A stretch of 55,035 bases of DNA, the filler included, from Jimgerdemannia flammicorona (lineage: Eukaryota): assembly GCA_003990765.1 (NCBI GenBank). It is 2 parts of 2 records of this genome, joined end to end, with 100 filler letters (N's around TTAATTAATTAA, not from the genome) between each part and the next. Parts side by side here need not be neighbours in the genome. Positions count along the whole stretch, not along the records: positions 27,597 to 55,035 come from RBNJ01000627.1; 1 more part is not named here. The stretch is one strand, 5' to 3'. A program made the translations under genes and the position numbers. Below the pieces are notes generated by a model that searched no databases, had not been told where the DNA came from, and was given only the letters and a program-made list of their open reading frames with translations. This document shows, piece after piece, positions 1-55,035 of the stretch (positions within the stretch are counted from its first letter, which is position 1; each line of letters starts with the position of its first letter).

Positions 1-36
1 TTTTATAGTCCCTTGGACTTCATCTTTATTACCAAT

Positions 37-3723: not shown

Positions 3724-3753
3724 AATGAAATATGGTTTGTTTGCAATCAATCC

Positions 3754-5760: not shown

Positions 5761-5863
5761 CTCCAGATACTCATTGGTCACCATAATACCAGTAGCTTTC
5801 CTCCAGAAACTGTGTCAAAAGTGTTGCCAAAGATTGTGTAACCTGAATGTTACCAGAGAAAGG

Positions 5864-8789: not shown

Positions 8790-8978
8790 CCTTTTATCCT
8801 TCTTTTATATTCCTCAAGATGCCTGTACTGTGGTCACAATGACTCACAGTTGGTCATTATTGCTCATCTTGTAGCCTGGATGAGTCATGCCATATAATCT
8901 TCTTATGCTCTGATCTGGTAGCTTATAAGGAATTGCTGTCTCTTATGCTGATGTCATCATTCTGAGGTCACTGTTACA
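8790..8978 (-). repeat. 3' LTR of Gypsy A, first ~190 bp (remainder displaced by LINE copy 2)
   Basis: Matches 16210-16396 and begins TGTAACAGTGACC immediately after the PPT. Confidence 0.9.
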
Positions 8979-11900
8979 TCTTCCTCCTGAATAAGGATCT
9001 TCTTGAATATTCTTATTCATTAGTTCAGTCCTGAAAAATTTGCTGATTCCATAACCTCTGGCAAGGGGTCAAAAAGTGATATTTATAAGCTAATGTCTTC
9101 TCTATATATTTTGGCATAATGGTGAAGAGTCACTCCCTTCATATAGAGAAAGGACCTGATTCTGATCTTAACCAATCAGTTGACAGTTCAAACTCCTCTA
9201 GCTTTGAAAGTCTCATAAATGAGTAGTTACTAGTGCTATATCCCTTAGAGAATGGTCCAGACAGATTGCCTACTGGTCACAGGATATGCTGTTATGATTC
9301 ACAGACTAGAACCTCATGGGTAGTCATCATATTTTGCTTTTCTTGTATAGGTTTATGGTACTTCTTGAGTCTGTTCCTGTGTACTGTGATAGGCAGTATA
9401 GTTTTTGAGATTTTTTTAAACCAGAAGATAGTTCTTTTGATATCTTGTACATAGAAGGGTCCTTCCCATTTGGGCTCCAGTTTTTATGACTATGAGGCTT
9501 CTACTATATTTCAATACAGTAGGATATTTTCTCTGATTTGGATAGGTTCTAGGGTCTTGTAATTCTTTTCTGCATTTTTTCTTATTAGTACTTGTAACTT
9601 GATGATATAATCTTCAGTCTTCTTCCTGATTTGGTGTAGTCTCCAGATTTTCAAGTCAACTCATCTCCAAGTTAGGTCTAGATTTGTGGCTGAGGTTCTA
9701 TCAGAATCTTCTTCTCTGAAGAGCAGTTCTCTTAGAGTAAAGTGTGTGCTCTATGACTGTATATCTTATAAGATAGAGAGAGCAGTTGGGAGGTAGTTAT
9801 CCCAATTCTCATATATGTCTGAGATCTTTGCCAGGATGTTCTTGAGAGTCTTATTGGTTCTCTCTATCTGTCCATTTTCTTGAGGGTGGTACATGGTAGT
9901 CTTAATGTACTGAATCTTGTATTTCTGATATATTATCTTATGGAATCCATTGACAAATTCTGTACCACAGTCTGTGGTGATTTGCCTTGGTGTCTTATAG
10001 TAGCAGGTGATTTCTTAGTATAAGAAGTCAGCTATAAAGAGAGCATTGACTTCTTATAATACTCCTGCTTCTATCCATTTGATAAAGAGGTCTATAATAA
10101 CTATAATATAGCAGTTTCCTGATAGTATTACTGGTAGTGGCCCAATGATATTCATTACAATGTGGAAGAAGGAGACAAGCTCAATTCTTGATGACCTGGG
10201 TGCCTGGTCTTACTGATCTTATTTCTGTTTTTGGCACTTATCACACCCTTTGACAAATTGGTGTTGATCTTCTTCCATCTTGGGCTACTATATAGTTCTT
10301 CTTGCCTTATTATATGTATTGATTCCTCTTAAGTGTCCTTATTTGTGTACTTCCTTCATTACTTGATACTTCTTGTATTCAGATATTACAAGCTTTTCTC
10401 CTTTTCTGAGTATAGTATTATCTAGTTCAAACTGTTTCCAAGTCTGGTTGATAATAGTGATTGTTCAGAGTTCAAGGTGGTTGGGCATCTTCCACTGCCC
10501 AAGGTAGCTAATTAATCTATAGTATAACTTCTTATTCATGTTGAATAGTCTTGATGGTCATATTTCGAATATCTTTGAAAGTATATCAGCATTGGTGTTA
10601 GTTCTCCCTGAGTAGTGCTTGACAGTACAGTCATACTCTTATAGTCTGTAGATCTATCTGGTATATATTCCTCTGGAGTTCAGAGTGTGAAATAGCCAGG
10701 CAAGAGCAGAATGATCTATTTAAATAGTGAAGTATTTCTCAGCTAGGTAGTAGTGGAACATGTCTACTGCCTAAACTACTGCTAAGTATTTGAGCTTGCA
10801 TAACTCTTAGTTTTGTTCTGCTCTGTGGGTACCTCAGCTTATATAAGAGATGACATATTCATATCTATCTTTCTTCTGAGCTAAGACTGTTTCAAGTTCT
10901 ATAGCACTTGCATCTGTCTGCAGGATGAACTCTAGGTTCCAATCTGGTCTTCTAAGGATGGGTGCTTAGATCAATCTGGTCTTGAGTTCATTGAAGGTTT
11001 CTTAGCATTCCTTGGTCCATTCAAATTTAGTCTCCTTCTTCAGTAGCTTGTAGATAGATGTTGCAATATTGGAGTATCCTTTGATAAATCTTCTATAGTA
11101 AGAGGTCAGTCCAAGAAAGACATAGACTTCTATAGTTGTTCTGAGTCTCAGGTAGACTGCAACAGTCTCAATCTTCATGAAATCTATATGGATTCCAGTA
11201 TGATTGATGAGGTATCCTAGGTAGGTGATTTCCTGAGTCACAAACTTGCACTTCTTAGACTTGATATAGAGGCCATGCTCCTTGAGCTTCTTGAGGGCTA
11301 GCTATATATGGTTGATATATTCCCATATAGTATTGCTAAAGATGATCACATCATCAATATAGACAAAGAGTAATTTTCCAATCTCATTGCTAAAGACTCT
11401 ATTCATCATTCACTAAAAAATTGCTGGGGTATTGTATATTCCAAATAGTATTTACAGATAGATATAGATGGCATTAGGTATAATGAAGGCTAATTTCTCA
11501 CTGACATCTTGAGTGAGACCAATCTGATAGAAGCCTGAGAATAGATCCAAGGTGGTGTAGTATTTGGCTTTACTTCCAAGAGTGGTAAGGATTTTTTAAA
11601 TATTTGGCAAGAGCTGCTTATCCTTTTTGGTAATTATATTGAGCTTCCTATAGTTAATGTAGAGTCTTAGGGCAAACTCTCCAGACTTACTTCCTTTCTT
11701 TGGGGTAAAGACAATGGGTGAAGCCCAGAGACTGATAGCTTGTTTAATAATTTTGGCTTCTTCCATTTCCTTGAGTTCTGCTTGCAGCCATTCTCTATAG
11801 GCAGGTGGTATAGGTCTGGCTTTCTGGTAGATGGGCTTAGTATCACCAGTATCAACTTCATAGTAGTACTTGGGTTCTTGATTGTGGATATCCCTGAAGT

Positions 11901-12049
11901 CTATAGTAAGTACTTCTTCATTCTAGTATAGGATCTTGAGAAGTTGCTCTTCCAGGGAAAAGTTTTCTCCAATAGTATATATGTGCTTATTCTGGTCCTT
12001 ATCTTTCTTGTACTCAAGTTTAGTAATCTTGGTGGCAGTATAGACTCCT

Positions 12050-12430
12050 CTTCCAGTAGATCCAAAGCCTTGTTCTCCTCTCTTGGTCTTGATGAGTTTG
12101 ATGGCTTCAGTGATCTTGGGCTTATTGATTTCATGAATCAGCATCTGATCAATCCTATTATACTTCTTGACTTCAAATGGGGTGGTAGGGTTGTGATTCC
12201 TAACTATGAGGAAGATCTTACCAGTATAATCAGGATCAATTACTCCTCCTTCAACTGAGATTTCACCTTTGGCCAGACTGCTCCTGGTCTTGATAATTCC
12301 AGCATAGTTCTCTGGAAACTTGACCCCAATTCTAGTACCAAGTAGAGTGGTGGTCTGTGGTTTGAGAGTAGCATCTTGAATGCTGGCAAGGTCTATTTCT
12401 ATGGCTCCTTCAGTCTTATATTCTGAGATT
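12050..12430 (-). pseudogene. dUTPase domain of Gypsy A, between PR and RT
   Basis: Trimeric dUTPase motifs RSSLA, GGVIDPDYTG and RGEQGFGSTG. Confidence 0.9.
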
Positions 12431-12839
12431 TTGGCTTTGGGGTGAAACTTCTTAACCTTGAGGGTGATGTCTGGTTCTTGTTCCTCCTCATTATTACTGT
12501 CATCTTGAAGCTCTGGGGGCTGGTCATCTTCTTTAGCTTTCTTTTTTGCTTCAGTAGCTTCTTACTTATGCTTCTGTTGACAGATTTTCCTGACTTCACT
12601 GATACAGGACCAGCAGTCATTCAGGTGTTCAGAGCAGTACATTCTAGTACCATGGGGGCATCTTCCTTGAGGGGCATAGCCATTGATGATCTTGTTGTAT
12701 CACTGCTCATCTGTGAGCTTGGGTGTCTTGTTCTTATTCTTGTTCACTGAGTGTATGAAGACTTCTGTGTTCTCTTCATCTCCTTTCTTCATGTCTGGTA
12801 GAACTTCTTTGTGGACATTGATAGAGACTTGTACCTTTA

Positions 12840-12955
12840 GTCAAGTCCTTCGGGACCGCTGACACTTGAAAAAATTGGAATGATACAGAGAAGATTAGCA
12901 TGGCCCCTATACAAGAATGATACTATCTTCCTGAGTGAATAGCCCTATATGGGCA
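12840..12955 (+). ncRNA. U6 snRNA retrocopy (pseudogene)
   Basis: 5' stem GTCC-TTCG-GGAC, then the core ATACAGAGAAGATTAGCATGGCCCCT. Flanked by the 17-bp TSD AGAGACTTGTACCTTTA (12823-12839, 12956-12972). Confidence 0.93.
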
Positions 12956-14981
12956 AGAGACTTGTACCTTTATTTCTCTATAGTTGATCTGTATCTTCTG
13001 GGCATTGAGGTCAATGATGGCCTTGGTCTTATAAATCTATTGATTGCTAATGAGGATGTCATAGTTGGTGGCACTTGTAATAATCACATCTACTGGAATA
13101 GTAGCTCCTCCTATCTTGATGAGGACTTCTCAGATTTTGCCAAGGGAGGTAGCTCATGTATCATCTACTATGACATAGACTATCTTGGTAGACTCTTCAA
13201 TGTCTCAGCCTAGGCAGTCAATTGCCTTCTTGCTCATAAGGCATCCTCTAGCACCAGTATCAATGATGGCATCAAAGATACAATCTTCAATCTGACATGG
13301 GGTATAGGCTGATATCTTGTACTGGTCTTCAGATTCTTTATCTGAGTCTTCTTAATCATCTTCTTTTATATTGTGAGCTTCTACAATCTTGTACTCTTGA
13401 TTCTTGATAGTAGTTGTAAGTCCTACTCTTAACTACTATCTGAAGGCAGAGACTTTAGCTAGCTGTCCAAAAGTAGCATTGATCTTCTGTTCCTTGAGAT
13501 CTTTGTAGATATTATACTGGTGGATCTTAGTCTTATATAGCTTCTGTTCTCTCTTGCTTTCACTTTCTTCTAAGACTAGAGTAGTATATTCAATAATTTG
13601 ATAGGCAGCTTCATTTAACTCTATGTCTTGATCAATCTTCTCAGATTGGATCTTGCTTTGAATAGTGACAGCTGGGGTCTTCTTCAGTCTTTCAACTGGC
13701 TTGCTGTTGCTCTTATTGTCATAGGGCTTAGACTGGGTTCTGATATCTTTAGTAGCAGGGTAGAATTCGAGCTCTTTGTAGTATTCTTCATCATCAGTAT
13801 TACCAATCTTCTTGATGACTACTGCATTGGTTTGTTCTCTAGTTCTGGTAGCATTACTTGGTTGAGCTTTGTATCTTATTTCAGTTATGCAATTCTTTGC
13901 ATAGTGGCCTTTTTCTCTACATCTGAAGCATGTGATATTATATTCTTCTATAATAGCTACACATCTCTATACTGGTCTCCTGTTGGCACTTCAGACTTCT
14001 CTAATAATATTGCCAAGGTGTGCAGTCATCTTGATGAACTGCTTGGCAAGTTCCTCCACTAGGTCAGCTTTGGCTATCTTGGAGGTAGGTGGAGATGATT
14101 GTCTATTTACAATTGTGGTGGGTATAATACTAGTTGGCTTTGATGACTTCATTTTGATGCTAGTTATTTTCTCCATTAAGTGTTTGGTGGGGTATCTGAC
14201 AGTTTAATATCTCTGTACAAAGACTACTTTCTGATCAAGGGTTGGTGCAGCTGGGGTAAATCAGATTGCTAAGGCAATTTCAGAGCGAACTCCTTTAAGA
14301 AAGGTTGAATCTGCTATTTGTTCCTTAAGATAGTCATCATAGTCAGTCAAGATAATCTGATAGTAGATTTGGATATAGAATGAGTTGGAATCTTCACTGA
14401 GTCTCTGGCAGATAGTATTGAGTTGATCCTTGAGAGCTTGCTTGATCTCTTCAGTATAGTATATAGTTCTGAGAAAGGTCTTCATATAGATAAGTCTGGC
14501 TGCACCAGTATTAGCAATAGTGACTGCATTGAACTTATCTCTGACAGGTCCTCTGAGGCTGACTGATAGAAGGACTAATTGTACATCCACATTGAGGACT
14601 TGTAGAGTGGCAAATTGTTCAAAGTCTTTAATGAAGGTCAGGATTGACTCTTCAGTAGTATATCTATAGAATATAGAGAGATGTATTTTTATCTTATCTT
14701 GAATTCATACAGGGGTGACTCTTGTAGTCAGGTAGTTATTGTAGTAGTTGTTTATTTTTCAGCTTGAAAGTGAGGGATTCATCTTGAATCATCAGCCAAT
14801 GGGTACTAAGTTGTTATGTAGTAGTTGCTGAGTCCTTCAAATATATCAGATTCTCTTTAAAATATATCTCTTAGACTAACTCAAGTTTGTTATAAGCAAG
14901 TTCTTATTGAAGTATCTTCCCAAGGTCTTATAGTCCTCAAACTTCTTATCTTTAAACTGTCATATTATCTCTTAGATTGCT

Positions 14982-16396
14982 TGTAAGAGATTGTGTGTAA
15001 GTGAATCAGAACTGACTTTATTTCAGAAGAAATAAGAAGAATATTTATACAAAATATAATTCAATAGTTACTAAGATATAAAGCTAAATATAAATTCCAA
15101 TAACCAAATAAAATGCTGGAACACAGAAAACTGCTAAGTTTCAGGATTGGTACAGATGGTTGTACAGGTTCAGGATGCTGGTATAATTTCAGTAATATAG
15201 GAAAATAGTACTGGAATAATTCTGAGTTACACAAGATCAGAATGCTGATAGAGGAATAGCTGTTATATAGGAAATAGATACTAGCATAATTCAGTATAAC
15301 TAAGGGACTTAGAGCAGAATGTTCAGGACTATGAGGGCTTCATCCTCATCATTGCTGAAGGAGATGATGTCTATAAACATTTTATCCATCTCATTATATA
15401 GGTTATACATTTCGTGTATATCATACATTTTGCATACTTCATGTATATCATGTGAGATGACATCATCATATTCAGTGGCAGCAGAAACAAGGAGGTCTGG
15501 AGCTCTCCAGTCTATGAGGTTCTCTTCCACAAAATAGAGAACAAATGTGGGGTCTTGGAGAGATCTAACCTGGATACTTGGGCATTAGAATACTGAGATC
15601 AATCCTTATAAGAATTGATCTGAGTTGTCCTGGAGGATGGGATATCAGAAGTCTTCTACTTCATCACTATTGAGGGTAATAGTGGACTAGACTTCTATAG
15701 CCACCCTGGCTTCTAGTATATTGATATAGTAGGCTGATAGATCTCTGAAGTCTGAGACTCTAATATACTCCAAGTTGGAGATCAACTATAATGTATACCT
15801 GAAGATCTGATGAATCTTCTTAGCTGTCCTTGCTTTATATATATTCATAGGAGTGATATCTTGTAACTCTTGGGGGCTGGTCTGTAGGAACTCTCAGTAG
15901 AGAAGGTTTCCTATTTTGTACTCTTGCTACATTTGGAGGTATTTTGTAGCAATGGTGATCTTTGTTTCTATTTCATAATGATAGAGAATAAAATGATAAG
16001 GATCTCTGGTATCTAGGTCAAGGTTAGAAGTTCTTCTTATATAGATCCTCATGGCTCTTCTGATGTCTTGAAATATCCTTTCTTTAACTGAGGTACCTTG
16101 GTGATTTCTTGACCTTGAGGTTTAGTAAGCAGCAGATATTTCATTTGTAGTAAGTCTTTGAGCTATTTTGGGATTAGTGGGTCTTATTGAGTTGCTGCTA
16201 CTGTAGTTCTTTGATCCTTCTTTTATATTCCTCAAGGTACTTGTACTGTGGTCACAATGACTCATAGTTGGTCATCATTGCTCATCTTATAGCCTGGGTG
16301 AGTCATGCCATATAATCTTCTTGTACTCTGATCTGATGGCTTATAAGAAATTACTGTCTCTTATGCTGATATCATTATTCTGAGGTCACTGTTACA
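14982..16396 (-). repeat. 5' LTR of Gypsy A (~1.4 kb)
   Basis: TGTAA...TTACA termini; homologous to 8790-8978 and 53750-55035. Confidence 0.88.
15309..16139 (-). pseudogene. LTR-embedded accessory ORF, decayed copy
   Basis: Colinear with 53991-54827. The start codon is mutated to ATA. The C-terminus reads EENLIDWRAPDLL...IVLNILL. Confidence 0.8.
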
Positions 16397-27496: not shown

Positions 27497-27596
27497 NNNN
27501 NNNNNNNNNNNNNNNNNNNNNNNNNNNNNNNNNNNNNNNNTTAATTAATTAANNNNNNNNNNNNNNNNNNNNNNNNNNNNNNNNNNNNNNNNNNNN
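27497..27596. other. Scaffold gap with an artificial TTAATTAATTAA spacer
   Basis: N runs flank a 12-mer that gives stops in all six frames. Confidence 0.95.
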
Positions 27597-30021: not shown

Positions 30022-30184
30022 CCTCTCTATGTGATTCAGTGGGTTCTGCATAAGCTCTGATTGAGCAAGGTTTGCAATGATATTTGAGCAAAGTTTGTAG
30101 TATATTTGAGCAAGATTTGTAGCAAGATTTGCAGCAAGGGTTGAGTGAGATTTACAAGTAAGATTAAAGTGAGATTTGCATAAG

Positions 30185-30950
30185 TATAATAGAATGAATG
30201 AGCAAACAGATGAGATGCAACAAATGATCACATGACCCAGTGATGACATCATCATACAATTGAGCATGACATACAAATGAATGATGTGAAATGATGTGAA
30301 AAATGATATCTAGCTTATCTCTGACAATTGGTGCCACAGCAACTATTATCACAGCAGCTGATCATTGCCTAGTAATTGAGGTCCTGATCACAAAGTTGTT
30401 TTTACCAAAAACCACCTAACAAAGGTTATGATCACAAACCTCACTATAGTTACCAAATTAGTCACTCATACATAGTCAGAAATCACAGACCAACTTGTAT
30501 AAATACCCCCTAGTTTCCATTTGAAATAAAGCAGTTTTAGTTCAGTCCTTGATACAAAAATCAAGTCCCCCCACACACACACATTCTTCTGAGTTTAAGT
30601 AATGACATCTAAGTGACTCTAGTGTTTCTGACTAAACTCTAGAAGCCTAGCTAACTTCTGCCAGAACTGAGACCAGTATATAAATCTCCAAAGACTTAAG
30701 TAAACCTATTGAACCTAAATTCCAAGGCGAATTCAGTCTGTGTACAGCAAAGAACAAGACCCTTGAAAGATAGGGCAAATCAGAAAAAGTCCTTTGAAAT
30801 AAAAGGCACTGCTACTACAACTACTTATAAGTAAGTGCTTCCTCAAACTGAAGGCTTCTTGGTATATATTGTGTACTAAGTCCCTAAGTAATAGTCTTAC
30901 TTCTCTAATATCCAAAGGATAAGAGAGGGGTAGAAGTGAGAGTCATTACA
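30185..30950 (+). repeat. 5' LTR of Gypsy B
   Basis: Direct repeat of 45098-45853. TATAAATA at 30498, AATAAA at ~30525, ends TTACA. Confidence 0.93.
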
Positions 30951-30953
30951 ACT

Positions 30954-30965
30954 TGGTAGCAGTGG
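30954..30965 (+). promoter_or_regulatory. Primer-binding site, probably initiator tRNA-Met
   Basis: TGGTAGCAGTGG 3 nt after the LTR, complementary to a ...CUGCUACCA tRNA end. Confidence 0.75.
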
Positions 30966-31189
30966 ATTACTGAGCCAAGAAGGCACTAAGAACATACTCC
31001 TGAAGTTGGAACAAGACCAACCTTGGACAGGAGTAACCCCCAGAACTAACAGTAGATTCCCTAGGATCAAACCCCCAAACCAGAGCCAGAGAAGCCCTTG
31101 CCTAGTGCTCTGAATGAGTCAATTTAAATCAAATCTGGATTCAATTCATCACATGATGGTTTGATTCAAATCTCAAATCCAAAGCCATC

Positions 31190-31440
31190 CGAATCAACTC
31201 AGATTAATCTGAATCACCCCATCTGAATCACCCCATCCAAATCACCTATCTAAACTACCCCAATCTGAATTACTCAATCTGAATCACTCAATCTGAATCA
31301 CTCAATTCAAATCACTCAATCCAAATTACTCAATCTGAATCCTCCAATTCGATTCCTCCAATTCAAATCCTCCAATTTGAATCCTTTAATCTGAATCCTT
31401 ATCTGAATCCTTCAACTGAATCCTCTAATCCAAATCCTCC
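31190..31440. repeat. hAT left subterminal repeats (AATCTGAATCACTC units)
   Basis: Tandem ~13-14-bp units; related GATC/GATT motifs occur at 37540-37680. Confidence 0.85.
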
Positions 31441-31442
31441 AC

Positions 31443-34146: not shown

Positions 34147-34284
34147 AATTTGGCAAGTCCTAGGGGTTCGCAGATAAGTTGGTTGGCCTTGTGAAATATT
34201 TAATATCTTTCAAAAATAATAAAAAAGGTAAAAAACCCTGAGGACTTGGCCTGGAGTTTGCGGCCCAAGTGGGCAGTAGTTGGT

Positions 34285-35335: not shown

Positions 35336-35339
35336 AGTC

Positions 35340-37407: not shown

Positions 37408-37717
37408 GATGTGGCAGGAAAGAACAAAGAAAAAGAATAAAGAAAAGAGAGGGAACAAAGAAAAGGGTGATGTCACCAAAGTGTGGCAGGAAAAAAAAAA
37501 TGAGAGTGAAATAAACAAAAGAAAGGGTGATGTCACCAAAGATTTCAATCTGGATGGATCAATCCAGATGGATCAATCCAGATCAATCTGGATCAATCTG
37601 GATCAGATCACGAGACTAATCTAAGTTGATTTGAATCCATCACATGATGAACCTGAATCGAATCTCATCTAGATCAACTCCATTCATTCGGAGTACTACC
37701 CTTGCCATTAGGACCAG

Positions 37718-40700
37718 ATGGTACTAGGAAACCACAGATCCAGGGACCCATCAGCTTATAATTGACCAAGCTTACAAGAATCTATACCAGGCCTTTAGGA
37801 CTTACCACCCAGGACTTAGAAATATAGTCAGCCACCATACGTTCTACAAACTTCTCTATAAATATATTAGAACCACTAGGACCCCAGAATCTACTGCTGC
37901 AGCCACTCAGGATTTTTTAGATTATATCTCACCCCCTGCTGCAAGAGAAGCAGCTGCCGAGTAGATTACCTCTGACAGATATCATCATACCCACCAAGAC
38001 CTCACTCTACTACAGGTTAGTTGTATACTATACCTCTGCCATAACCTGGTATGAGAATGAGCAAGCAGGCCACCCACCCCCTACTGCTGAACAAGAAGCA
38101 GGCCCATCTACTTAGCCAGAAACTGATATTTGCTTTGAAGGACCTAGTCAGTACAAAGATGCACTATCTCATCAGGAAAGGAAGTCAGACAAAGACTCTA
38201 CAGGTTACCAGTCTGACAATAGCCAACTAGAAATAGTAGGCCTAGGAATTTACCAAGGAATTACAGATTAAGAAAATCAGACTCCAGAACCAACCCAGCC
38301 ACCTATATAGAGATTTGGGTTACCCTTCCTCACAGGACTCTTTGATCTGATATCTGGGAATCAAGTAACCCCAAGTCATATAGCACTACAACCTCATCAG
38401 GAAGATCAATCTTCAGGAGAATCTACCCCAATAGGCCTACCACCAATAGTCAATACAATGATAGATGTCAATATTACAGCACTGACTACCTAGCTAGCTG
38501 CACTAGCAGGAATAGTAGAATAGATTGCTGAATAGAACAAAACAACCAAAACTTTGCAAATCCCAACATTCAGTGGAAAAAACAGTGATATTGAAAACTT
38601 CATCAATATAGTTGATATAGGTTACCAAGCAAACTAATAGAATAACAACCAAGTGCCTATAGGAATGCTCACTAATAATCAGAACAATACTCTTCAACAG
38701 TTGTTTACCACATCAGCAGTACAAGTGGAAACAGTAGCCACATTCTTCACTAAAACAGCAGCTGAATTCTGGCAAATCTTGGAATAGCACCCAGTAACCT
38801 GAAAAAACCACCCTCAAGTCAATAGACAAGCACCTGCCAACAATAGACCAGGTTGGGATGACTATGAAGCAGGCCCAGGACTCAAGGCCCTGCTACTGAC
38901 CAAATTTCAAAATGCAGTCTATATATAAGAAACTTGGAACAAACTGTCTCAGATGAAGTTCTACAAGAATGGTGAAGAGGATCTTGAGATCTTTGCCACC
39001 AGAATGGATACCTACCTCAAAACCATTGGACTTACCTACCGGGAGAACAATTAGGCCATCAATAGTACCAGAGCCAACCATCTCTTTGCAGCTCTACCAG
39101 ACTGGCTCACCCAGAAGATCAAGGAACAAGGTCTTCTCTAAGGATGCCCCCACTATTCATAGTGCTTTGCCCAAGTACAAAGAAGAGCCTGTGAAATCCT
39201 TGCTGCACAAGCCTCATGAAATCAGGAACATAAGAAGGATAACCAAGATAGGAGGAATCCTACTAGGAGAAATGATCAAAGGAATGATCAAAGGAACCAG
39301 CAAAACCCCAGAGGACTCAGACCTCCAACTGAGGATGAAAAAAAGCAGCTCTGCAAAAAGAGATTGTGCTTCATCTACAAGAAGGCAGGACACATCTCAT
39401 TCAAATGCTCTGAGAAGAGAAACAGATCAGGCAAACCCAGTAACCAGAACATTACTATTATTAGAGAAGGCCCAGAAAAGAAGAACTCTGAGAATATCAT
39501 CAAAGCAGAAGATATGGTACAAGGCTACTATCCCCACTAAGGCCCACCCAACTGATACTGGATATGACCTCTACAGTAGCCAAGACCTCACTATCTCACT
39601 AAGTACCAATGCTACAGTGCAAATAGAGATTGCAATACAAGCTCCCAAAGATATATATATCTACCTTATTGAGCGAAGCAGCTTAGCCAAAGAGTTCAAC
39701 ATTGGGCTAGGAGGAGGAGTAGTTGACCAAGGATATACTGGTGAAATCCATATTATCTTGTGAAATTTTGGAGACACATCATTTGAAGTCAAAGCAGGCC
39801 AAAGAATCGCCTAAGCAATCATTGAAGAAATCCATTAAGATCTCACCATTGAAGAAGTCCCCAAGTTCTCTCAGACAGACTATGGCAAGAAAGGGTTTGG
39901 ATCAACCAACAAACCTTCTAGTCAAAAGGTCACAATTATAAAGAAAGATGATGAAAACTGGTACAAGAGAATTGCAAATGGTTATATACCATGTGGATGA
40001 TACCCTCATTCTATTCAAATGTACTACATGGAACATGTTAATAAATGCCATATATGCCTCTTCAAGGTTTTTAAAATCAACTCTGAAAGAAACCAAGCCC
40101 AAAAGACTGAGGAACTCAAACAAGACCACTCTCCTTGTGAAGGATGGGGAGAAACTGACTTCAAGGAGACTAATAGCAATTGGGACAATAATGAAGAGGA
40201 AGAGCTCAACACCATCAAGAAGGAGGACAGTTGTATCAAGTTCACAGACCAAGTTCACAGACAAAATGTCAATGTCTTACTTGATAGCAGTGCTACTGGA
40301 AACTATATCAGCACCAAGACTGCCAAGAAGATTGGAGCCTGAAGCAAACCAGCTACCGAAAAAAGGATTATTATCTTTAGTGATGGCAAGACTGTACCAC
40401 TGACTAAGATCTGTGAAGACCTCTTGCTTAAGATTGGCAAATATCAAGAGAAGTTGGACTTCAGCATTGTAGACCTCTCAGGACAAGATATTATCCTAGG
40501 AAAAGCCTGGTTGACTCAGCACAACCCAGATATTAACTAGAGGACCAATGAGGTTAACCTGATCTATGAAGGAAGAAAGATCACCCTGACACCCCAGGAA
40601 GGTACCAACTATCAAGGAATTGAAATCATCTCTGCCATTCAAATGAAGAGACTCTCTCAAAAAGAGGGAAACACCTACTTCATCTGCACAGTACAAGAAG

Positions 40701-43600
40701 TCACTGAAGCTACAAGTAGCCCAATTCCAACAGAAGCTCAAGAACTATTTGAAGAGTTCCAAGATATATTCCAGGACCCTCAAGGACTTCTACCTAAACA
40801 CCAAATCTAATATGAAATTGATCTTATTTCAGGATCTGAACCTCCTTATAAGAGTATCTATCAATTGACCCAACCTGAACTTAAGACCCTCAAGGATAAG
40901 TTGACCAAACTACTGGCCCAAGGATATATTGAATCTAGCCACTCTCCATTTGGAGCCCCCATCCTATTTGTCAAGAAAAAGGATGGCTCTCTGCAAATAT
41001 ATATTGACTACAGAGCCCTTAACAAAATTACTATCAAGAACCAGTATGTCTTACCCAGGATTGATGAGTTGTTACACCAAATCTTCAAGGCCAAGATCTT
41101 TTCCCTACTAGACTTGCAAAATGGCTACCACTAGATTCTTATTGATGAGAAGGACATTGAAAAGACAGCTTTCCAAATACAGTTTGGATACTACTAGTTC
41201 CGAGTTATGCCTTTTGGTTTAACCAATGCTCCAGTAATATTCCAGTATCTGATGAATGACATCTTTGGACCACTCCTCAACATTTGTATTTTTGTATATA
41301 TTGATGATATACTAATCTACAGTGAAACAGTAGAGTTATACTACACCCACCTCAGATAGGTACTGACCCTTCTGCGAGAACACCAGCTCTATGCTAAGAT
41401 GAGCAAGTATAAGTTCTATCAAGACCAGATTGAGTACCTAGGACATATCATATCTGCTGAAAGTATCAATGTGGACTCCCAAAAGATATCAGCCCTCAAG
41501 GATATTTCCATCCCTACTACCCTCAAGCTACTCCAGCACTTTCTGGGTATTGTCAGTTATTACCAAAGATTTATTCAAGGATACTCTGCTATTGTAGCCC
41601 TACTGACCAGCCTGGCCTACAAAGGAGTAAACATCAAGACTGAATGGACTCCTGAATGTACCCAGACTATGGACCATCTCAAGAGACTCCTTACTAAGGC
41701 CCCAGTGCTAATTGCACCTGACCCTACTAGGCCATTCACTCTGACCACAGATGCCTCTGATATTGCCATTGAGGCAGTGCTCAGCCAAGAAGACCACCTA
41801 GTAGCCTACCTTTTCCAAAAGCTCAAGCTAGCTGAGATCTGGTATACTATCTATAAGAAGGAACTCCTGGCCATTGTTACTGCTCTCCAGGAATGGTGCC
41901 AGTTCCTTCTAGGATAACTATTTATGATCTACACTGATCACCATGCTCTGTAGTATATTCACATATAGCCCATACTGACCCACAGACAAGCCCACTGAAT
42001 GGAAATTATTGCCAACTTTGATATGGAAATCAAGTATATCCCAGGCAAAACCAACTGTGTGGCTGATGGTTTTTCCAGATATATGGGAGATGAACTTGTC
42101 TTCATGGTCAAGATAATTGGAGACCTTACCCAAATGATCAAGAATGGCTATCAGCAAGACAGCCCTCTGATGAAATTTCTTCAATTCTGCCAAAATCCAG
42201 AGGCCAAGGTCCCAGAACTCATGAGGCAAATGTCCAAGAGATTCTCTTACTGTGATGGACTTATCTACAGGGACCATGACAGAGTAGTTATACCCAATAA
42301 TAATACTCTGTGGCTCAAGATCATGCAGGAACTCCATGATACTCCTGCAGCAGGACACTTCAGTTTTGAGAAGACCTATAACCTCCTCTCAAGAGAGTTT
42401 TACTAGCCAAAGATGACCAAGGACATCAAAGACTTTGTGGCCTTATGTGAGATGTGCCAAAGATTCAAGAGTAGTAACAAGCTACCAGCAGGACTTCTGC
42501 AACCTCTGCCAATCCCAAGTCATAACTAGGATCAGTTTGCAATAGATTTCATTGTCCAACTCCCTAAGACCAAGGTTGGATGGGATGCCATTGTGGTATT
42601 CATAGACTGCTTAAGCAAACAAGCCCATTTTGCACCCACTAAGACTACCGCTACTATACCAGAAATTGCCAAGATTTTCCTCAACCAAGTATTCAAACTA
42701 CATAACATGCCTAGCACCATTGTATCTGACTGGGATGCTAAGTTCAAAAGTAACTTCTGGAAGGTATTTTTCTCTCTCTATGGAACCAAGCTGAAGTTCT
42801 CTACTGCCTACCACCCTCAGACTGACAGTCAAACCAAGTGAATCAATAGGACCCTCAAACAGATGCTCAGCATCTTCTACTGCTACAAGCAGAATGATTG
42901 GGACAAGTACCTAGCCCATGCTGAGTTTGCCTACAACAACAGTTAGCAAATCTCTACAAAGAAGACTCCATTCTTTCTGAACCACAGTCAATATCCAAGG
43001 ACCCTGAGTACCACTGTAAAATCAGCAGTCCCAGTAGCCCAAGATCTGGCTGAGACCATTTCTGATCTTACTTGAATGACAAGAGATACTCTCATAGAAG
43101 CACAGGACTACCAGACCAAGTATGCAAACTTGAAGTGAAGAAAAGTCTCTTATAATATTAATGACATAGTCATGCTTAGAACAGACTATCTCCACCCAGA
43201 TACCCTGGCACAATAACTGGTCAAGAAACTCTATACTAGAAGAATTGGACCATATAAGATTGTGGAAAAAGTCAGCAAAGTCAACTATAAGTTGCAACTT
43301 CTCCACAACATCTAAGTACACCCAGTATTCCATATCAGCCAATTGGTGGAATACTATGAGAACACATTTTCTGAGTATACAGTTCCACCTCCACTTCCAA
43401 TTAGGATCAATAATCAAAAGAAATTTGAAATTGAGGAAGTACTTGACTATAAGATCCACAAATATTCCAAAATAGTCAAGTGGATTTTTCTCATCAAGTG
43501 GAAGGGTTACCCCACCCATGATGCTATCTGGGAAAAAGAAGAAGCTCTAGAGAATGCACATGAAGTTCTCCAGGACTACATGGAAACACTCACCCCCTAG
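37718..43600 (+). pseudogene. Gypsy B gag-pol (stops, frameshifts)
   Basis: Knuckle [40 protein letters not shown] and YIDD, RH TTDASD, IN HDTPAAGH and YHPQTD, chromodomain FEIEEVLD...LIKWKGY...DAIWE. The start is approximate. Confidence 0.93.
39510..39910 (+). pseudogene. dUTPase domain of Gypsy B, between gag and PR
   Basis: Motifs TGYDLYS, RSSLA, GGVVDQGYTGEI and GKKGFGST. Confidence 0.93.
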
Positions 43601-44258
43601 CAAAGGAAAGAACTACAGCTCTAAAAATTAGAGCACATAGCAACAGGAGGATGCTATATATTTTTATCCAAAACATATATTACTGAACATTGCAGAAAAA
43701 AGAAATACTATAATTGAGAAGACACTCAGACAAAGGACAATCTAGCATAGTACAGCAAAACACATTTGAACAACTCTATTTCACATCATCTATATCATCT
43801 CCACTGGATGATGATAGATACTTCATATGAAACTTAGAAAAGCCAACAATGTCAAAACCAATCTAAGCCCATCTACATGATAGATATTATTACTTAGGAA
43901 TTGCCTCAGATTATAAGAAAGTTTATTTTCAAGAGGTTCGAACCCCCAGCCATGACAATGAGAGCTCTTGTCCTAGACAAGTATGGTTAGTCCTTGTAAA
44001 TATATCAACCAGACAAAAAGAAAGAGAACCAAGACCTACTAACCCTGTGTAACTATGACTACAAGTGACAATATCTTTAAAATCAGGATCTTCTCATGTG
44101 CCCAGTATATGCCTGCTTACAGCAACAGATCATATATTTTGCTGGAAGGTATAACCAAAAGAAGGTCACACCAGATGGGTGAATAAGTATAAATACCCAA
44201 GGCAAGAATGTCCCACAACTCTCACCTCTCTCCTCACAAAGAAAAGACAAAGACAAGA

Positions 44259-45086
44259 ATGCCTGCTATCTGCCACCAAACTGCCTGTCATAGCCAGCTC
44301 CTCCCAAGCCAGATTGACTGCCTTTTTGGACACATCCAGATTGCCATCCAAGGAAGGAACCACTGCTCTGAGGCCCTTAACCTCTTCAGCCCAGACCTAG
44401 GACAGTACGTCCTTGACCACTATGAACTTATCAAATGGACCTACCTTGCTATCAGCCACCTAGAGATCTAGCATGAATACAAAGTCAGCCACCAGCTTCT
44501 TCAACATACAAATGGCCTACCTACTGACCAGGTCTCAGACAGGACCCACCTGGACAGATATGAGCAAAGACTTACCAAAAAGGTTCATCAAATCTTGTGC
44601 CATGCACCCTTTGCAATCCCCAACCTCAACTATGTCCAACTGAAGGATTTCCAGAACCTCTCTTTCCCTGAAGTGGATGCTCTAGAGATCAAGGTTGCCC
44701 AAGAAGCCAACTCCTGGATTGCCCTCAAGTCCACTGACTGTGAACCCCACTAGAGCCTCCTCCTGAATGACAACCCAGACCAATTGCTCCAAGGCCTCTC
44801 TGACCTCTTTGAAGGACTATCTATTCGAATGGATATCCTCAGGCATGAGGATTAAGAACCTTACTTAGATGGTCTCAACCACATCAGATGGAGAACCCCT
44901 ACACTAGCATCCATCCCAATGCAAGAACCATTTGCAGACCTCATTGACTTCTCCATCCTGGACAGCAAGCCATCAGCATCTACCCCCCCTGCCACTGAAG
45001 AAGATGGCAACAAACCTGAGGAAGACTCTCCACCTTTCTCTCCCCTGGTTCTCAATTTCCAAATCAATGAGGATATTGATTTCTAA
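44259..45086 (+). pseudogene. Accessory ORF of Gypsy B (275 codons, 3 internal stops), function unknown
   Basis: Single frame MPAICHQ...PLVLNFQINEDIDF*, ending at the PPT. Homologous to the LTR ORF of family A. TATAAATA at 44188. Confidence 0.85.
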
Positions 45087-45097
45087 GGAGGGAAGGA

Positions 45098-45853
45098 TAT
45101 AATAGAATGAACAAGCAAATAGATAAGATGTGATGAGTGATCATATGACCTTGCAATGACCTCATCATACAATTGAGCATGACATACAAATGAATGATAT
45201 GAAACAATGTGAAAAACAATATCCAGCTTATCCCTGACAATTGGTGCTGCAGCAACTGTTACCACCGCAGCTGATCATTATCTAGTAATTGAGGTCCTGA
45301 TCACAAAGTTGTTTTTACCAAAAACCATCTGATAAAGGTCATAATCACAAACCTCACTATAGTTAACTCATACTTAGTTAGAAATCATGGACCAACTTGT
45401 ATAAATACCCCCCAGTTTCCATCCAAAATAAAGCAGTTTTAGTTCAGTCCTTAATATAAGAATTAAGTCCCCCCACACACACACATTCTCCTGAGTCTTA
45501 GTAATGACACCTAAGTAACTCTAGTATTTCTGACTAAACTCCAGAAGCCTAGCTAACTTCTGCCAGAACTGAGCCTGATATATAAATTCCCAAAGACTTA
45601 AGTAAACCCATTGAATCTGAATTCCAAGGTGAATTTAGTCTGTGTACAGCAAAGAACAAGACCCTTGAAAGATAGGGAAAACCAGAAAAAGACCTTTAAA
45701 ACAAAAGGTACTGCTGCTACAATTACATATAAGCAAGTACTTTCTCAAACTGAAGGCTTCTTGGTATATATTGTATACTAAGTCCCTAAGTAATAGTCTT
45801 ACTTCTCTAATTATCCAAAGGATAAGAGAGGGGTAGAAGTGAGAGTTACTACA
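45098..45853 (+). repeat. 3' LTR of Gypsy B
   Basis: Follows the PPT (45085-45097), ends CTACA and is followed by the TSD. Confidence 0.93.
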
Positions 45854-45858
45854 ATAAG

Positions 45859-46180
45859 CCAGACTTTGCAAGCCTTGTACTTATAAGCTTAGCCAATAGC
45901 TGATATTATATAATATCAGCTTATATATACATCATATCAGCTTGTAACTGAGCTTGTCTAGACTTGTAAGTACAAGGCTTGCAAAGCCTGGCTTATGCAA
46001 ATCTCACTTTAATTTTACTTATAAATCTCACTTTAATCTTGCTTGCAAATCTTGCTTTAATCTTGCTTGCAAATCTTGCTTGAATCTCACTGAAAATCTT
46101 GCTCAAATGCACTACAAATCTCACTCAAACATCATTGCAAACCTTGCTTACTTGGGGCTTATGCAGAATATGCTGAATCA
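45859..46180. repeat. Hairpin 2: core and right arm (left arm continues at 30032-30184)
   Basis: Perfect 24-bp palindrome AGCTGATATTATATAATATCAGCT at 45898-45921. 45995-46180 is the reverse complement of 30032-30184. Confidence 0.85.
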
Positions 46181-50700: not shown

Positions 50701-53493
50701 TCCACCTCTCAGTCTATCCATAAGGAACCATCCTCCAATAAAGAAGAGTTCAGCTACCAATATCCTAGCCTGTCCCCACTTCCCCCAAATCTCCCACCCC
50801 CTATTAGACCCCAGTGATCTGACTACAGGCACCAAACTACCTCCAGTGTATCCCATACATCCACTCCCCAGCACTCTGTCATCAACATCCAGTCAATCCT
50901 AGAGCTCAGCCCTGCCACCCAGTGGGTATAAATTCAGTGATCTACTCAAAACTATCACCCTGAGTCAACTAAGGAGCCTAACCTCTCAATCTCTATTCAA
51001 TCATCTAACCTGCCACTTCTGGCTCTCATTTCTCTCCCTCCATCAGTCCTGTCTATCCCATTATTACATATTATGTTGAAATTCCCCCCAGGCAATCAAT
51101 CCTGACCTCACCCATGACACTAGCCTCTCTCAGGCCTCTGACCCAATCTATGTATTCCCCCTGCTCAGCTGGGCAATAATATGACCCAACAGTTAAAGGG
51201 TTCCATCCAGGTCTCCAATGTCCAATGTCCCCAATGTCCCCCATCCTCTTTTGAACCAGAATTCCCACCTGCTCAGTCCATACAGCTGCCCCACCCCATT
51301 CTCTAGTCCAGTCCAATAAGTCCAAGTTGGCCTCATACTGTACATCCTACAATAAGAAGAGATCTGCATCCAGTCCCCTCAGCCAGCTAAAAAAATTCCT
51401 TCTTCATATCACTCCCCTCAACCCATTCACATTCAAAGAAAAGATTCTTATTGTACTGTTCATATTGAAAAAATGTTTGATAATAGAGAGCTCAATCTAG
51501 AATTCCATGCTCATCCCATCTCAAGCTAGATCCAATCACCACTCTGCCTCCAAATCATCCTCTGCTACAGCCTGAGCATCCAGTGCTTCCAAGATTTCCT
51601 GACACTCCACCCTATCCACAATCTCTATTTCTATCTGATAATCTGTACACACTACTCTCCACTTCTCCAACCTCTTCCTTGAGCCCCACAAGTATGCTAT
51701 CTGGTCATTTGTAATCCCCTGAAGGGCCTTCTCTCTTTGATCATTCACTTGATATTCCTCTGACTCCAATAGTACTGCCAGGATCTCATTTCTAATCTTC
51801 CTCGATACTTCCTCTCCATGAAGAATTTCCTCCCAATACCTATCACTTAGTATCCAGAAGTCCTCTTCCCTGAGCTCCTCAGCTGCTACTCTCTTCAGAG
51901 TCTTCCATAACCACTTCTCTTCATCCACCACCTCAGCAACACCCTGGACAACTCTCTTGACTCCTACCACAGAGTCCACCAAAGCACTCCTCCTCTCAGA
52001 CTCATCTCACTCCTCCTCCAGGATGTCCAGTAATTCCACCTCTCCCTCTGCCCCACTTAGGACACTATACTGAGGACAAACCTCCTCCCCCATTTCAGCA
52101 TCCTCTACTATACTGCCTAGACCCTTCTTGTTTGATCCATCTGGGGCCACCTCTGGAGCCACCCTGTGTTCCCCAGCCCAGGTGCTCTCCATCAGTCCAG
52201 CACCACCTTCCTCTACCCCACTATCTACCATACTCCCTCCCAGCTTCACCAGCAACTCCTTCTGGATTCACCTCCTCTGCATCTTCTCCCAGATCCTCTT
52301 GTCCATTCTGATCCTTTTTCCATCTACAATCTCCACCACCATCTTGGCTTTATACTCTTTCTGAGCCAGTCTCCTCTTCTCAACTACTCCTGCCAGATCC
52401 TCCAGAGCCTCCAGCAAGTCCTCTTCTTTCTCAAGTATCCCCTTTACTCTCAAGACCTTGTACTCAACTGGGCCCCACTTAAGAGTAGCAGGCCAGTCCC
52501 TTGTCTTCCCCATATTCTCCTTTCCAGCCAGCTGCACTCTGACATCAATATCTCCTATTCAGAGTTCAGTACTCTCTCAGATATGGAACCTGATGTCCGT
52601 GATCTCCCCATACTCCTTGACCACCTCCACAATCAGTTCTCTGGCCCTCTCCTGTAACACCATAGGAAGATCCAAAACTGTCAGCTGCACCACTTGTGGG
52701 TTCCAGCATATGCACCTAGTCATAGGAACTACTACTCTGCCCACCACCATCCCCTTCTCCACAGCCTCCAATAATGATGTCTCTTTCTCAAATCCCACCT
52801 TGACCCCTTCTTTCCCCTTCAGGAACTTCACTGAAGCTGCTCCCTTTATCTCCTATACCACCAACCCCAGAATCATCCTTACAGTCACCACCAAGCCTCA
52901 GAAGTACAATGTGACAGTGAATTCTGATCTCGACTTTTTGAGTAACAGTGCCAACACTATGCCTGTCACACCATCTGTCAGATCTCCAGGCCTCATGCTC
53001 TCTCCCTATTCTGATCCACCAACTACTGTCACATCTGGATTTTTTTCCAGATCCCTAGTCACAGCTCTATCAGCAGTTACATCTCTAGCCCCTACTCCTC
53101 CCCTCTCTCTACTGCCCAACCCTCCTATGGGGACCCCTCTCTGTCCCCCAACTGAAGCCATCAATGTCTTCCCCAGTCCCAACCAACTATCTAGTCCAGA
53201 TGCCAATCTCTCCATCTTGACCTTATTAGCAAAGATTGTCCTCTCCCCTCTTCTTAGCTGCAATCTGCCTCTCCCTCCACCACCAGTGCTGTAGCCAGCC
53301 ATAGAAGGCTCTGGCATCTCTAAACCATCTCCTCTCCTCCCTACATACTGCCAGTCAAAAGCACCACTACCCCTCTGACTAGTACACTCATCAGTACAAT
53401 CATTGCTGTCTATATCGATAGTCTCCTTTCACTAAAAATGTTGTGAAAAGTGTTGTCTGAGTCTTGTGTTACCTGAATATTACTGGTAAAAGG
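47740..53493 (-). mobile_element. Full-length LINE copy 4
   Basis: Poly(A) tail and AATAAA, ORF2 (ATG at 51463; APE and RT motifs), ORF1 ~53413-51497, and a ~14-bp TSD TGTTTTG(A/G)GTATGT. Confidence 0.93.
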
Positions 53494-53749
53494 TGTTTTG
53501 GGTATGTATTGAATCTCATCATTCATGATGCTCTTGGTTCTCTTAGCAAACCCATTGGAAAGCTATGGGAGTTGATAAAGAAGATCAAAAATTCAGTATA
53601 ATGACAAGTACAACTAGTGAAGGTCTGTAAATCCTCCAGAATTTTCATTTTGAAGCCTCTCTTAGATGTTACTATGAGATTGAGTTCTACACATGAAATG
53701 TTAATATATACTCTAGAGATTTGTAAAGTAAGATTTTGAATCTATTTAT

Positions 53750-55035
53750 TGTAACGGTGACCCCAGAATGATGACATCAGCACAGGAGCAGCCTTTCTTT
53801 GCAAGTCACCAGATTGGAGTACAAGAAGATCATATGGCATATGAGATGAGCAATGATGACCAACTGTGAGTCATTGTAACCACAGTACAAGCATCCTGAA
53901 GAATATAAAAGAAGGATCAAGGAACTACAGTAGCAGCAGCCAATAAGAACTATCAATCCCAAAATAGCTCAAAGACTTACTACAAATGAAATGCCTGCTG
54001 CCCACCAAACCTCAAGATCAAGGAACCACCAAGGTATCTCAGTTGAAGAGAGGATGTTCCAAGACATCAGAAGAGCTATGAGGACCCGCTCAAGAAGGAC
54101 TCCCAGTGTTAACCTGGGTACTGCAGATCCCTATCACTTTATCCTCTACTGCTTTGAGATGGAAACAAGGATCACCATTGCTACTGAATGCCTCCAAATA
54201 TGGCAGGAGTACGAAATAGGAAACCTCCTCTGATGGGAGTTCCCACAGACCAGCACTCAAGAGCTATGAGATGCCACTCCCATGGATATATGTGAAATAA
54301 GGACAGCTAAGAAGATCCATCAGATCTTCAGGCATATACCATGGTCGATCCCCAACTTGGAGTATGTTAGAGTCTCAGACTTCAGAGATCTGTCATCCCA
54401 CCATATCAATACACTAGAAGCCAGAGTGGCTACAGAAGCCCAGTCCACTATCACCCTCAACAGTGAAGAAGTAGAAGACTTCTGGCATCCTATCCTCTAG
54501 GACAACCCAGATCAATTCCTGCAAGGATTGATCTCAGTATTCCAAGGCCCAAGCATCCAGGTTAGATCTCCCTAAGACCCCACATTTGTTCCCTATTTTG
54601 TGGAAGAGAACCTCATAGACTGGAGAGCTCCAGATCTCCTTGTTCCCAATTTCCCTGCCACAGCTGAATGTGATGATATCATTGGTGATGATGTCATCTC
54701 GCGCAACATTGACATACATGAGATGTGTGACGAAGCACATGAAAACGATGAATTCGCAGATCTCATCTCCTTCAGTGATGATGATGACAAGGATGAAGCC
54801 CCCATGGTCCTGAACTTTCTGCTCTAAGTTCTTTATTACACTGGATAATGCCAGCACCAGTATTCTTATATAACACTGGATAATACTAGCATCCTGAACC
54901 TGTACAATCATCAGTACCGACCCTGGAACTTAGTAGTTTTAGTTATTGGAATTTATATTTAGCTTTATATCTTAGCAACCATTGAATTATATTTTGTATA
55001 AATACCTCTCTTATTTCCTCTGAAATAAAGTCAGT
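53750..55035 (+). repeat. Family-A LTR, less mutated copy, running off the window end
   Basis: Begins TGTAACGGTGACC and is the reverse-complement homolog of 15011-16396. Confidence 0.93.
53991..54827 (+). pseudogene. LTR-embedded accessory ORF (278 codons, 4 internal stops), function unknown
   Basis: ORF fragments 53991-54233, 54282-54500 and 54600-54827 share one frame. The stops are TGA/TAG/TAA, as expected from C->T. TATAAAA at 53904. Confidence 0.87.

Follow-up and report, generated by a model that had tools for sequence, protein, structure and literature searches.

A selected accessory gene probably carried inside the long terminal repeat of one Ty3/Gypsy family and internally in a sister element of Jimgerdemannia flammicorona

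The window analysed here, that is, the whole stretch of 55,035 nucleotides (filler included), joins two parts of two records of the Jimgerdemannia flammicorona genome (NCBI GenBank assembly GCA_003990765.1), positions 27,597 to 55,035 coming from RBNJ01000627.1. It holds two copies of the long terminal repeat (LTR) of a Ty3/Gypsy retrotransposon family, here called family A, each with an open reading frame (ORF) for an accessory protein, and a sister element, here called element 2, with a paralogous ORF. The features of family A on which the argument depends are as follows.

53991..54827, plus strand: accessory ORF, copy 2 (P0001), 278 codons by translation, with four in-frame stops private to this copy
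15309..16139, minus strand: accessory ORF, copy 1 (P0002), by pairwise alignment, with eight internal stops
53904..53911, plus strand: TATA1, TATAAAAG, located 87 nt upstream of the ATG, a putative promoter belonging to the accessory gene itself
54995..55035, plus strand: LTR core module, by pattern search, made up of TATA2, 17-19 nt, AAATAAA and CAGT
53750..55035, plus strand: family-A LTR, copy 2, starting with TGTAAC and interrupted by the window end, 80% identical to 16399-15261(-)
15011..16396, minus strand: family-A 5' LTR of a minus-strand element, minimum extent, which may extend to about 14817
8793..8988, minus strand: polypurine tract (8988-8979) and first 186 nt of the 3' LTR (8978-8793), cut beside an unrelated repeat
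9766..14704, minus strand: family-A interior, by Pfam, with a gag bearing CCHC, dUTPase, reverse transcriptase (RT) and integrase, decayed

Translated from 53991 to 54830(+), copy 2 gives a single frame of 278 codons from ATG to TAA, with MPAAHQ as its first residues and LNFLL as its last, interrupted at codons 81 (TGA), 93 (TGA), 170 (TAG) and 195 (TAA), while the remaining five frames across this interval contain 8-24 stops each. A previous sequence-only reading had joined three tracked ORFs into one frame, and these proved to be the three longest pieces of the 278-codon frame; the second copy that it had placed in the LTR at 15309-16139 was also found, on the minus strand, with about 80% identity and eight stops. 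In fact, comparison of the window with itself gave an inverted second copy at 16399-15261(-), 80% identical to the LTR copy at 53750, in which the frame of copy 1 (16139-15309, minus strand) is maintained end to end in the alignment with copy 2. No stop codon is common to the two copies, and all five alignment gaps within the ORF are multiples of three (9, 3, 3, 3 and 6), compared with two of the nine outside it (the alignment-end gap left out). As 96 of the 152 differences within the ORF have C or G in copy 2 and T or A in copy 1, copy 1 has strongly decayed through C-to-T type change. Both family-A copies in the window, with their four and eight stops, are dead.

The existence of a gene behind these two broken copies is supported, in the first place, by intact relatives. 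A word-indexed protein search gave six proteins at an expectation value (E) of 0.01 or better among 320 candidates, and a HMMER profile pass gave six at E 0.001 or better among 1.84 billion representatives, all the family proteins stemming from JGI or ENA contigs and none bearing an informative name. The intact relatives on other metagenome contigs measure 214-342 aa and share 22-79% identity with P0004, the intact full-length members being P0004 (271 aa), P0011 (323 aa) and P0021 (342 aa). The closest relatives of P0001 are P0003 (83% identity) and P0004 (72%, full length, with the same first and last residues), P0020, P0022 and P0023 being more distant members, and conservation across the family is concentrated in blocks in the middle of the protein and in a short C-terminal motif. 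A search of metagenome contigs retrieved one locus, L001, with an intact 323-codon ORF; the viral contig search gave no relative of the accessory protein, and no fused or longer form was found among 7848 candidates of 600-2000 aa.

In the second place, the substitutions bear the mark of a coding sequence. The bias by codon position that the sequence-only reading had named as a test is present, the differences between L001 and copy 2 being distributed 96/71/145 over the three positions of 276 codons. The proportion of synonymous differences (pS) is 0.73 and that of nonsynonymous differences (pN) 0.28, giving a pN/pS of 0.39 with a bootstrap 95% interval of 0.31-0.47; as a control for strong transition bias, the same alignment read in its five other frames gave 0.52-1.32, and in all four pairs tested the minimum of pN/pS fell in the true reading frame.

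Moreover, contigs of four coded runs (X1, X5, X7 and X9) were aligned on 53400-55035, no consensus being built; 40 of 222 variant rows and 24 of 121 loose contig ends were listed, and the statements on both refer to those listed. The frame is open beyond the window copies, as the other test proposed by that reading demanded: the four stop sites read as sense codons (TGC, CAA, CAG and CAA) in 96-100% of the X1 contig depth, and X5, X7 and X9, where they cover a stop site, go in the same direction, so that sense prevails at all four sites in most of the contig depth of the four runs. The claim that the stops are all of C-to-T type stood for three of the four, which have T where the other copies have C, but not for the one at 54231-54233, a TGA where most of the contig depth has TGC. 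Half of the listed variant rows (20 of 40) fall within the ORF; among the 15 outside the stop codons, 10 are third-position and 9 synonymous (chi-square p 0.022), and the listed indels within the ORF are +6, -6, -6, -3 and a compensated -1/+1 pair 4 nt apart.

The accessory ORF is therefore a genuine gene family and not a chance frame, and the real protein gene first proposed has gained support from the intact relatives, the sense reads at the stops and the pN/pS of 0.39. As judged from these comparisons of sequences, it is maintained by purifying selection, in a Ty3/Gypsy lineage which also bears dUTPase. A dead relic or chance ORF without a role in the life cycle of the element, for example a captured host fragment, would agree with two broken window copies, with the lack of any family, fold or named homologue in the searches and with the fact that no run containing the stretch is recorded as RNA. 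Nevertheless, it is highly improbable against several intact full-length ORFs with conserved blocks in lineages as distant from P0004 as 22-47% identity, a pN/pS lowest in the reading frame in four of four pairs, indels that keep the frame, the lack of shared stops, and the retention of the gene with its upstream region in two families whose dUTPase domains have diverged about as far as the gene (see below). As regards expression, the LTR is abundant in one soil metagenome run and was also found in runs of two coded organisms, none of the runs on record that contain the stretch being listed as RNA; contigs of X5 and X7, whose RNA nature is a guess, also span the LTR upstream of TATA1, and X5 is sparse on 54885-55035, which is not decisive.

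As the sequence-only reading had noted, the product is without a hydrophobic stretch, the highest 19-residue Kyte-Doolittle mean being at most 1.29 in all ten family proteins, and it is therefore not env-like; nor does it show the transmembrane segment or signal peptide of env-like proteins, its model being without a hydrophobic helix. The net charge of the last 70 residues ranges from -8 to -18, and the first 45 residues are basic in the family-A lineage only. An AlphaFold2 model of P0004 (12 sequences) reached a mean predicted local distance difference test score (pLDDT) of 54.9, with helices at residues 18-184 at about 70-90 in parts. The protein is predicted to be soluble and of about 270-340 aa, and in the model its core of helices gives way to an acidic tail that is disordered. 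This tail (54662-54781) is the most variable part of the ORF, with 65-67% identity between the two window copies; all four runs have a gap in contig depth at 54665-54774, and 96 nt (32 codons) of this part are missing from one X5 contig.

The search for relatives outside this small family, by Pfam, PDB profile and structure searches, gave none that could be detected. Pfam returned no family for P0001, P0002, P0024 (the element-2 paralogue), P0021 or P0011, a PDB sequence profile search no match at E up to 10, and Foldseek against PDB and BFVD none at E 0.001 or better; neither the VIA-align wide search, with a best Z of 4.2, nor the ESM Atlas, where the feature score reached 0.83 at best and the template modelling score was 0.33 or less, yielded anything usable. 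A duplicate of the gag or capsid was considered and rejected, the hhalign comparison of A3 with the family-A gag fragment, a single decayed one, giving a probability of 0.14%. From its composition, the protein might be guessed to be a regulator or adaptor working through short conserved motifs of the acidic tail, although this is rather unlikely to be the right guess.

The position of the gene depends, first of all, on where the family-A LTR begins. The minus-strand element reads, in order, flank, TGTAAC at 16396, TATA box, ORF, TATA plus AATAAA (15051-15017), gag, dUTPase, RT/integrase, polypurine tract and TGTAAC at 8978; the terminus at 16396 is thus repeated at 8978, and 8978-8793 is 91% identical to the start of the 5' LTR. 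TGTAAC is the true LTR terminus, because the context upstream of it differs between the 5' end of copy 1 and copy 2, and is a polypurine end at the 3' end of copy 1; because the X1 contig depth rises from 20-60 to 400-2300 across the bin 53730-53784; and because, of the listed loose ends before 53750, three in X1 and three in X9 carry the polypurine end of the interior, and one in X5 carries an unrelated flank. In the interior of family A, Pfam recognised zf-CCHC (E 2e-4) and dUTPase (PF00692, E 1.5e-24, 86.7 bits against a cut-off of 22), together with RVT_1 (E 1.5e-4) and rve_3 (E 5.9e-4), both under Pfam's own score cut-offs; the same search, in which the RT and integrase fragments thus remained under the cut-offs, gave no chromodomain match.

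Two conserved signals enclose the ORF. Upstream, L001 and element 2 also have a TATA1 box, at 65 and 71 nt from the ATG, respectively, and the segment 53906-53990 is the best-conserved part of the LTR, with 92.9% identity between the two family-A copies as compared with 83% for the ORF. Downstream, the core module (TGTATAAATA, 17-19 nt, AAATAAA, CAGT) has four matches in the window against none expected from shuffles, the sites being in both family-A copies and both element-2 LTRs, and it can be aligned in L001 too. As the ATG comes 241 nt after the start of the LTR, and the core module (54995-55029 for TATA2-AATAAA) follows the ORF, the ORF falls within the family-A LTR, in agreement with the sequence-only reading, which had set the gene inside this LTR; this position is well supported, although not closed by a complete element. 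The proportion originally given, with the ORF filling about 60% of a 1.4-kb LTR, has to be taken as an upper figure, since the LTR measures at least 1386 nt (16396 to 15011) and its 3' end is not fixed in the window. A further observation on the start of the gene is that copy 2 has an out-of-frame ATG 5 nt upstream, which opens a 31-codon upstream ORF (53986-54081); in L001 and in element 2 the ORF's own ATG stands alone, without the extra one.

Within the LTR, the ORF most likely belongs to U3 (the unique 3' region), a placement which follows if TATA1 is read as the promoter of a cassette formed by this box and the ORF, and the TATA2 module as the core promoter of the genomic RNA. A third copy of the gene, paralogous and missed in the sequence-only reading, bears on this point; it lies in element 2, between pol and the 3' LTR.

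44259..45086, plus strand: paralogous accessory ORF (P0024, three stops), internal, by tblastn with the family proteins
45087..45097, plus strand: element-2 polypurine tract, directly after the stop codon of the ORF
45098..45853, plus strand: element-2 3' LTR, 88% identical to 30185-30951, followed by the target-site duplication ATAAG at 45854-45858
30180..30968, plus strand: ATAAG duplication (30180-30184), element-2 5' LTR (30185-30950) and primer-binding-like site (30953-30968)
38957..43597, plus strand: element-2 pol, by Pfam, with dUTPase, RT, RNase H, integrase and chromodomain

Element 2 is complete, as indicated by its pair of LTRs (756-766 nt, 88% identical), the flanking 5-bp duplication ATAAG, the primer-binding-like site and the polypurine tract. 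Its Pfam matches include PF00692 (dUTPase, E 2.4e-15, 56.9 bits), PF17919 (RNase H, E 3e-27), PF17921 (integrase zinc-binding, E 1.3e-7) and PF00385 (chromodomain, E 9.4e-10), those to RVT_1 (PF00078) and rve (PF00665) being under Pfam's own score cut-offs, and by its domain order, including a C-terminal chromodomain, the element can be classed as a chromovirus. The P0024 locus shares 58% identity with P0020 and 41% with P0021 (tblastn), and 35% over 216 aa with P0001 (E 2e-37), and it is preceded by TATAAATA at 44188-44195. Here the ORF follows the chromodomain and comes before the polypurine tract, in sense orientation, whereas in family A the tract (8988-8979) precedes the cassette. The alternative of a single 1.8-kb LTR of element 2 at 44050-45853, holding the ORF, was rejected: LTR similarity begins at 45098, the polypurine tract stands just before it, and the ATAAG duplication fits an LTR of 756-766 nt. 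With an internal copy in element 2, the LTR position is therefore a trait of one lineage and not of the gene.

Several other observations were made on these elements. For a pol fragment, the nearest matches are elements of land plants and of a charophyte alga, with 37-46% identity. The dUTPase domain precedes RT in both Gypsy families (11923-12561, minus strand; 38957-39760, plus strand), and a database relative, P0036 (1387 aa), combines dUTPase and chromodomain. The interior of element 2 measures about 14 kb, of which about 7 kb, in the region 30951-38900, lie between the primer-binding-like site and the point where a pol domain can first be recognised; within them a block rich in G+C (34000-36000), without Pfam matches, looks like a nested insertion or a long leader. 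The left flank of the element (30032-30190) is an inverted copy (77%) of 46012-46180, about 160 nt past its right end, and 45837-46009 is self-palindromic, so that element 2 was apparently inserted in an inverted-repeat structure.

The internal copy also helps to weigh a second placement, according to which the ORF lies in R (the repeated region) and not in U3: the genomic RNA would start after TATA1, the ORF would be its first cistron, repeated at the 3' end, and gag would require reinitiation, splicing or an internal entry site. TATA1 and the following 85 nt are indeed the best-conserved part of the family-A LTR (92.9%), and there is an AATAAA near the aligned end of the LTR copies. Nevertheless, in element 2 TATA1 and the ORF occupy the interior 3' end, so that TATA1 cannot be the genomic promoter there, while the LTRs carry the TATA2 module. 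Furthermore, in retroviruses a strong poly(A) signal distant from the cap in a long R ends most transcripts in the 5' LTR, and such would be the fate of most transcripts with an R of 1.1 kb. A position in R is thus improbable.

A third placement would leave the ORF outside the LTR altogether, either as a 5' internal ORF after a short LTR of about 180 nt, in the manner of Ogre ORF1 or Retrosat2 ORF0, or among the remnants of tandem elements. The sole LTR pair of one family-A element in the window measures 186 nt and ends before the ORF, a 7-nt match to the element-2 primer-binding-like site occurs just after TATA1, and the same gene is internal in element 2. However, in an LTR of 180 nt only about 20 nt would follow the TATA box, too little to accommodate R, U5 (the unique 5' region) or a poly(A) signal; the break at 8793 fits neither candidate CA end, without any fitting target-site duplication, and abuts the terminus of another repeat, which has the same endpoint in its second copy (8783, 53495); none of the 24 loose ends listed of 121 lies near 53920-53950; and the module common to the genuine LTRs lies downstream of the ORF. 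Nor does the family-A ORF lie where a 5' internal extra ORF would, as both the core module and the one primer-binding-like stretch follow it, although the LTR itself has no fixed 3' end. This arrangement is more improbable still than a position in R.

The placement of the gene within the LTR in family A and outside it in element 2 could be explained by a single change. The gene forms a cassette, with a conserved TATA box 65-87 nt upstream followed by the ORF, in a part order (pol, cassette, LTR core) common to both families, only the placement of the polypurine tract being different. In element 2 the tract comes after the ORF, which leaves the cassette internal, while in family A it comes before the cassette, the whole of which would become part of the LTR. 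Since U3 begins, on its left, where plus-strand priming occurs, relocating the priming site would suffice to bring the cassette into the LTR or, equally, to take it out. Between family A and element 2, identity amounts to 35% over 216 aa for the ORF and 38% over 65 aa for the dUTPase domain; being similarly diverged, the cassette is old in the lineage and not a recent capture. The gene may be transcribed from its own TATA box, with the transcript ending at the LTR poly(A) site, in which case each family-A LTR would be a self-contained transcription unit.

Taken as a whole, a selected accessory gene whose cassette lies inside the family-A LTR and internally in element 2 is the probable interpretation of the window. 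Several points weigh against it. There is no complete family-A element in the window, and none with the ORF in both LTRs, as the only one with both ends there has a 3' LTR that is cut off at 186 nt, short of the ORF. The homology which places the LTR core downstream of the ORF is only that of the module of about 40 nt, and the transcription starts and the poly(A) site, and hence the choice between U3 and R, are read from motifs alone. The element-2 LTR also has another TATA-like box, near 30680, and its 5' copy an additional AATAAA near 30800, so that more than one delimitation of R is possible. The end of the family-A LTR near 14817, with a primer-binding-like site at 14809-14796, is a proposal drawn from a weak likeness to element 2; a search with the primer-binding motif of the plant initiator tRNA gave no match at that site. 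Throughout the window this motif had 5 matches against 5.8 expected, none of them near an LTR end, and a search for tRNA genes gave none. Finally, the structure model is poor (mean pLDDT 54.9), so that the absence of fold matches says little and a new fold is not implied, and the sequence and structure searches gave no functional lead, including for the role of transactivator or anti-silencing factor which had been suggested at first.

If the gene is indeed in the LTR, it would be duplicated in every element and would survive whole in solo LTRs, as the sequence-only reading had inferred; it would also adjoin the promoter of the element, which could couple the expression of both. A bolder proposal goes further, in that every family-A LTR, including the solo ones, would be a full coding unit, scattered copies would supply an orphan regulator in trans, and the families would capture a shift of the priming site by which an accessory gene enters U3. 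This is possible, but we hold it to be somewhat less likely than its opposite. Were it true, hundreds or thousands of copies could provide the protein, for instance to counter host silencing or to tune the neighbouring genomic promoter, and the shift of the priming site across a gene, the route presumed for sag of mouse mammary tumour virus (MMTV) and for lentiviral nef, would be seen in retrotransposons. Independently of this proposal, one window offers a natural comparison of the same cassette inside the LTR (family A) and outside it (element 2), which makes testable how genes enter LTRs and with what effect on dosage and regulation, and the orphan protein with its conserved motifs is a candidate for a new kind of interaction between element and host.

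As regards the rest of the window, a large repeat occupies 1-8783 and 47760-53495, with about 50% G+C and a GC skew of -0.35 to -0.57, which is a strong strand bias. It has internal repeats of about 3 kb (2821/5867 and 3546/6577) and long open frames on both strands, the 11 long ORFs giving no Pfam match. At 8783 its terminus borders on family-A sequence, and at 53495 it stands 254 nt ahead of the LTR. That the 3' LTR of the minus-strand element breaks (8793) against the terminus of this unrelated repeat, with the same endpoint in the second copy (8783, 53495), has been considered above. There are two runs of N of 44 nt each (27497-27540 and 27553-27596), and the Pfam search recognised no host gene in the window.

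Extra ORFs in LTR retrotransposons are known, among them Ogre ORF1, an orphan frame that precedes gag and shares its orientation. The ORF0 of Retrosat2, RIRE3 and RIRE8 is described, in the available text of the source, as upstream of the gag-pol ORF and beside LTRs of more than 3 kb, and is not placed in the LTR there (PMC3485330). As far as that text goes, the likeness consists in an orphan ORF of unknown function that precedes gag, has its orientation and evolves faster than gag-pol (PMC3485330). In contrast to ORF0 and Ogre ORF1, the family-A ORF precedes the LTR core and the primer-binding-like site, and there is no relation in sequence. In plant LTR retrotransposons, the additional ORFs are placed in the internal region, a term search of the article giving no phrase that locates one in an LTR (PMC7264820). 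The sense additional ORFs described there lie between pol and the 3' LTR, and the element-2 copy has the same position and orientation; a further likeness is an ORF present in most copies and evolving faster than pol, while the accessory protein differs in having no transmembrane segment, and the family-A ORF in lying in the LTR (PMC7264820). With regard to dUTPase, the domain is reported, in the part of the source at hand, inside the Gag-Pol of chromodomain Gypsy elements of Postia, Phanerochaete and Tuber, and for fungal elements only; a figure legend also mentions, for some element, an 'add. ORF' whose function is unknown (PMC2864245). Those fungal chromoviruses and the elements studied here both bear dUTPase, whereas the pol found here is nearest to green algal and land plant elements, with 37-46% identity. 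The literature on ORFs in LTRs, as searched, mostly concerned MMTV and gave no protein gene of a retrotransposon inside an LTR; subscription journals were largely uncovered, and absence is therefore unproven.

The closest parallel in arrangement is offered by retroviruses. In MMTV, the sag ORF lies in the U3 of an LTR of 1.3-1.6 kb. As in sag, a frame of about 300 codons stands upstream of the genomic core promoter, takes up about half of an LTR of such size and would be present twice per provirus, and the family-A ORF similarly has the 5' terminus of the LTR before it and the core promoter and poly(A) signals after it. Nevertheless, the accessory protein has no relation to Sag in sequence or fold, no hydrophobic anchor like that of a type II membrane protein such as Sag (19-residue hydropathy at most 1.29 in ten of ten proteins) and no Pfam match; the host is a Gypsy retrotransposon and not a retrovirus, and a dedicated TATA box precedes the ORF here. 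Lentiviral nef and foamy virus bel/bet are 3' accessory genes over the boundary between the polypurine tract and U3, and the foamy virus accessory genes have an internal promoter. In comparison with these genes, to which there is no homology and which overlap U3 only in part, family A would hold the whole cassette in its LTR, and together with element 2 it presents both states, inside and outside, side by side.

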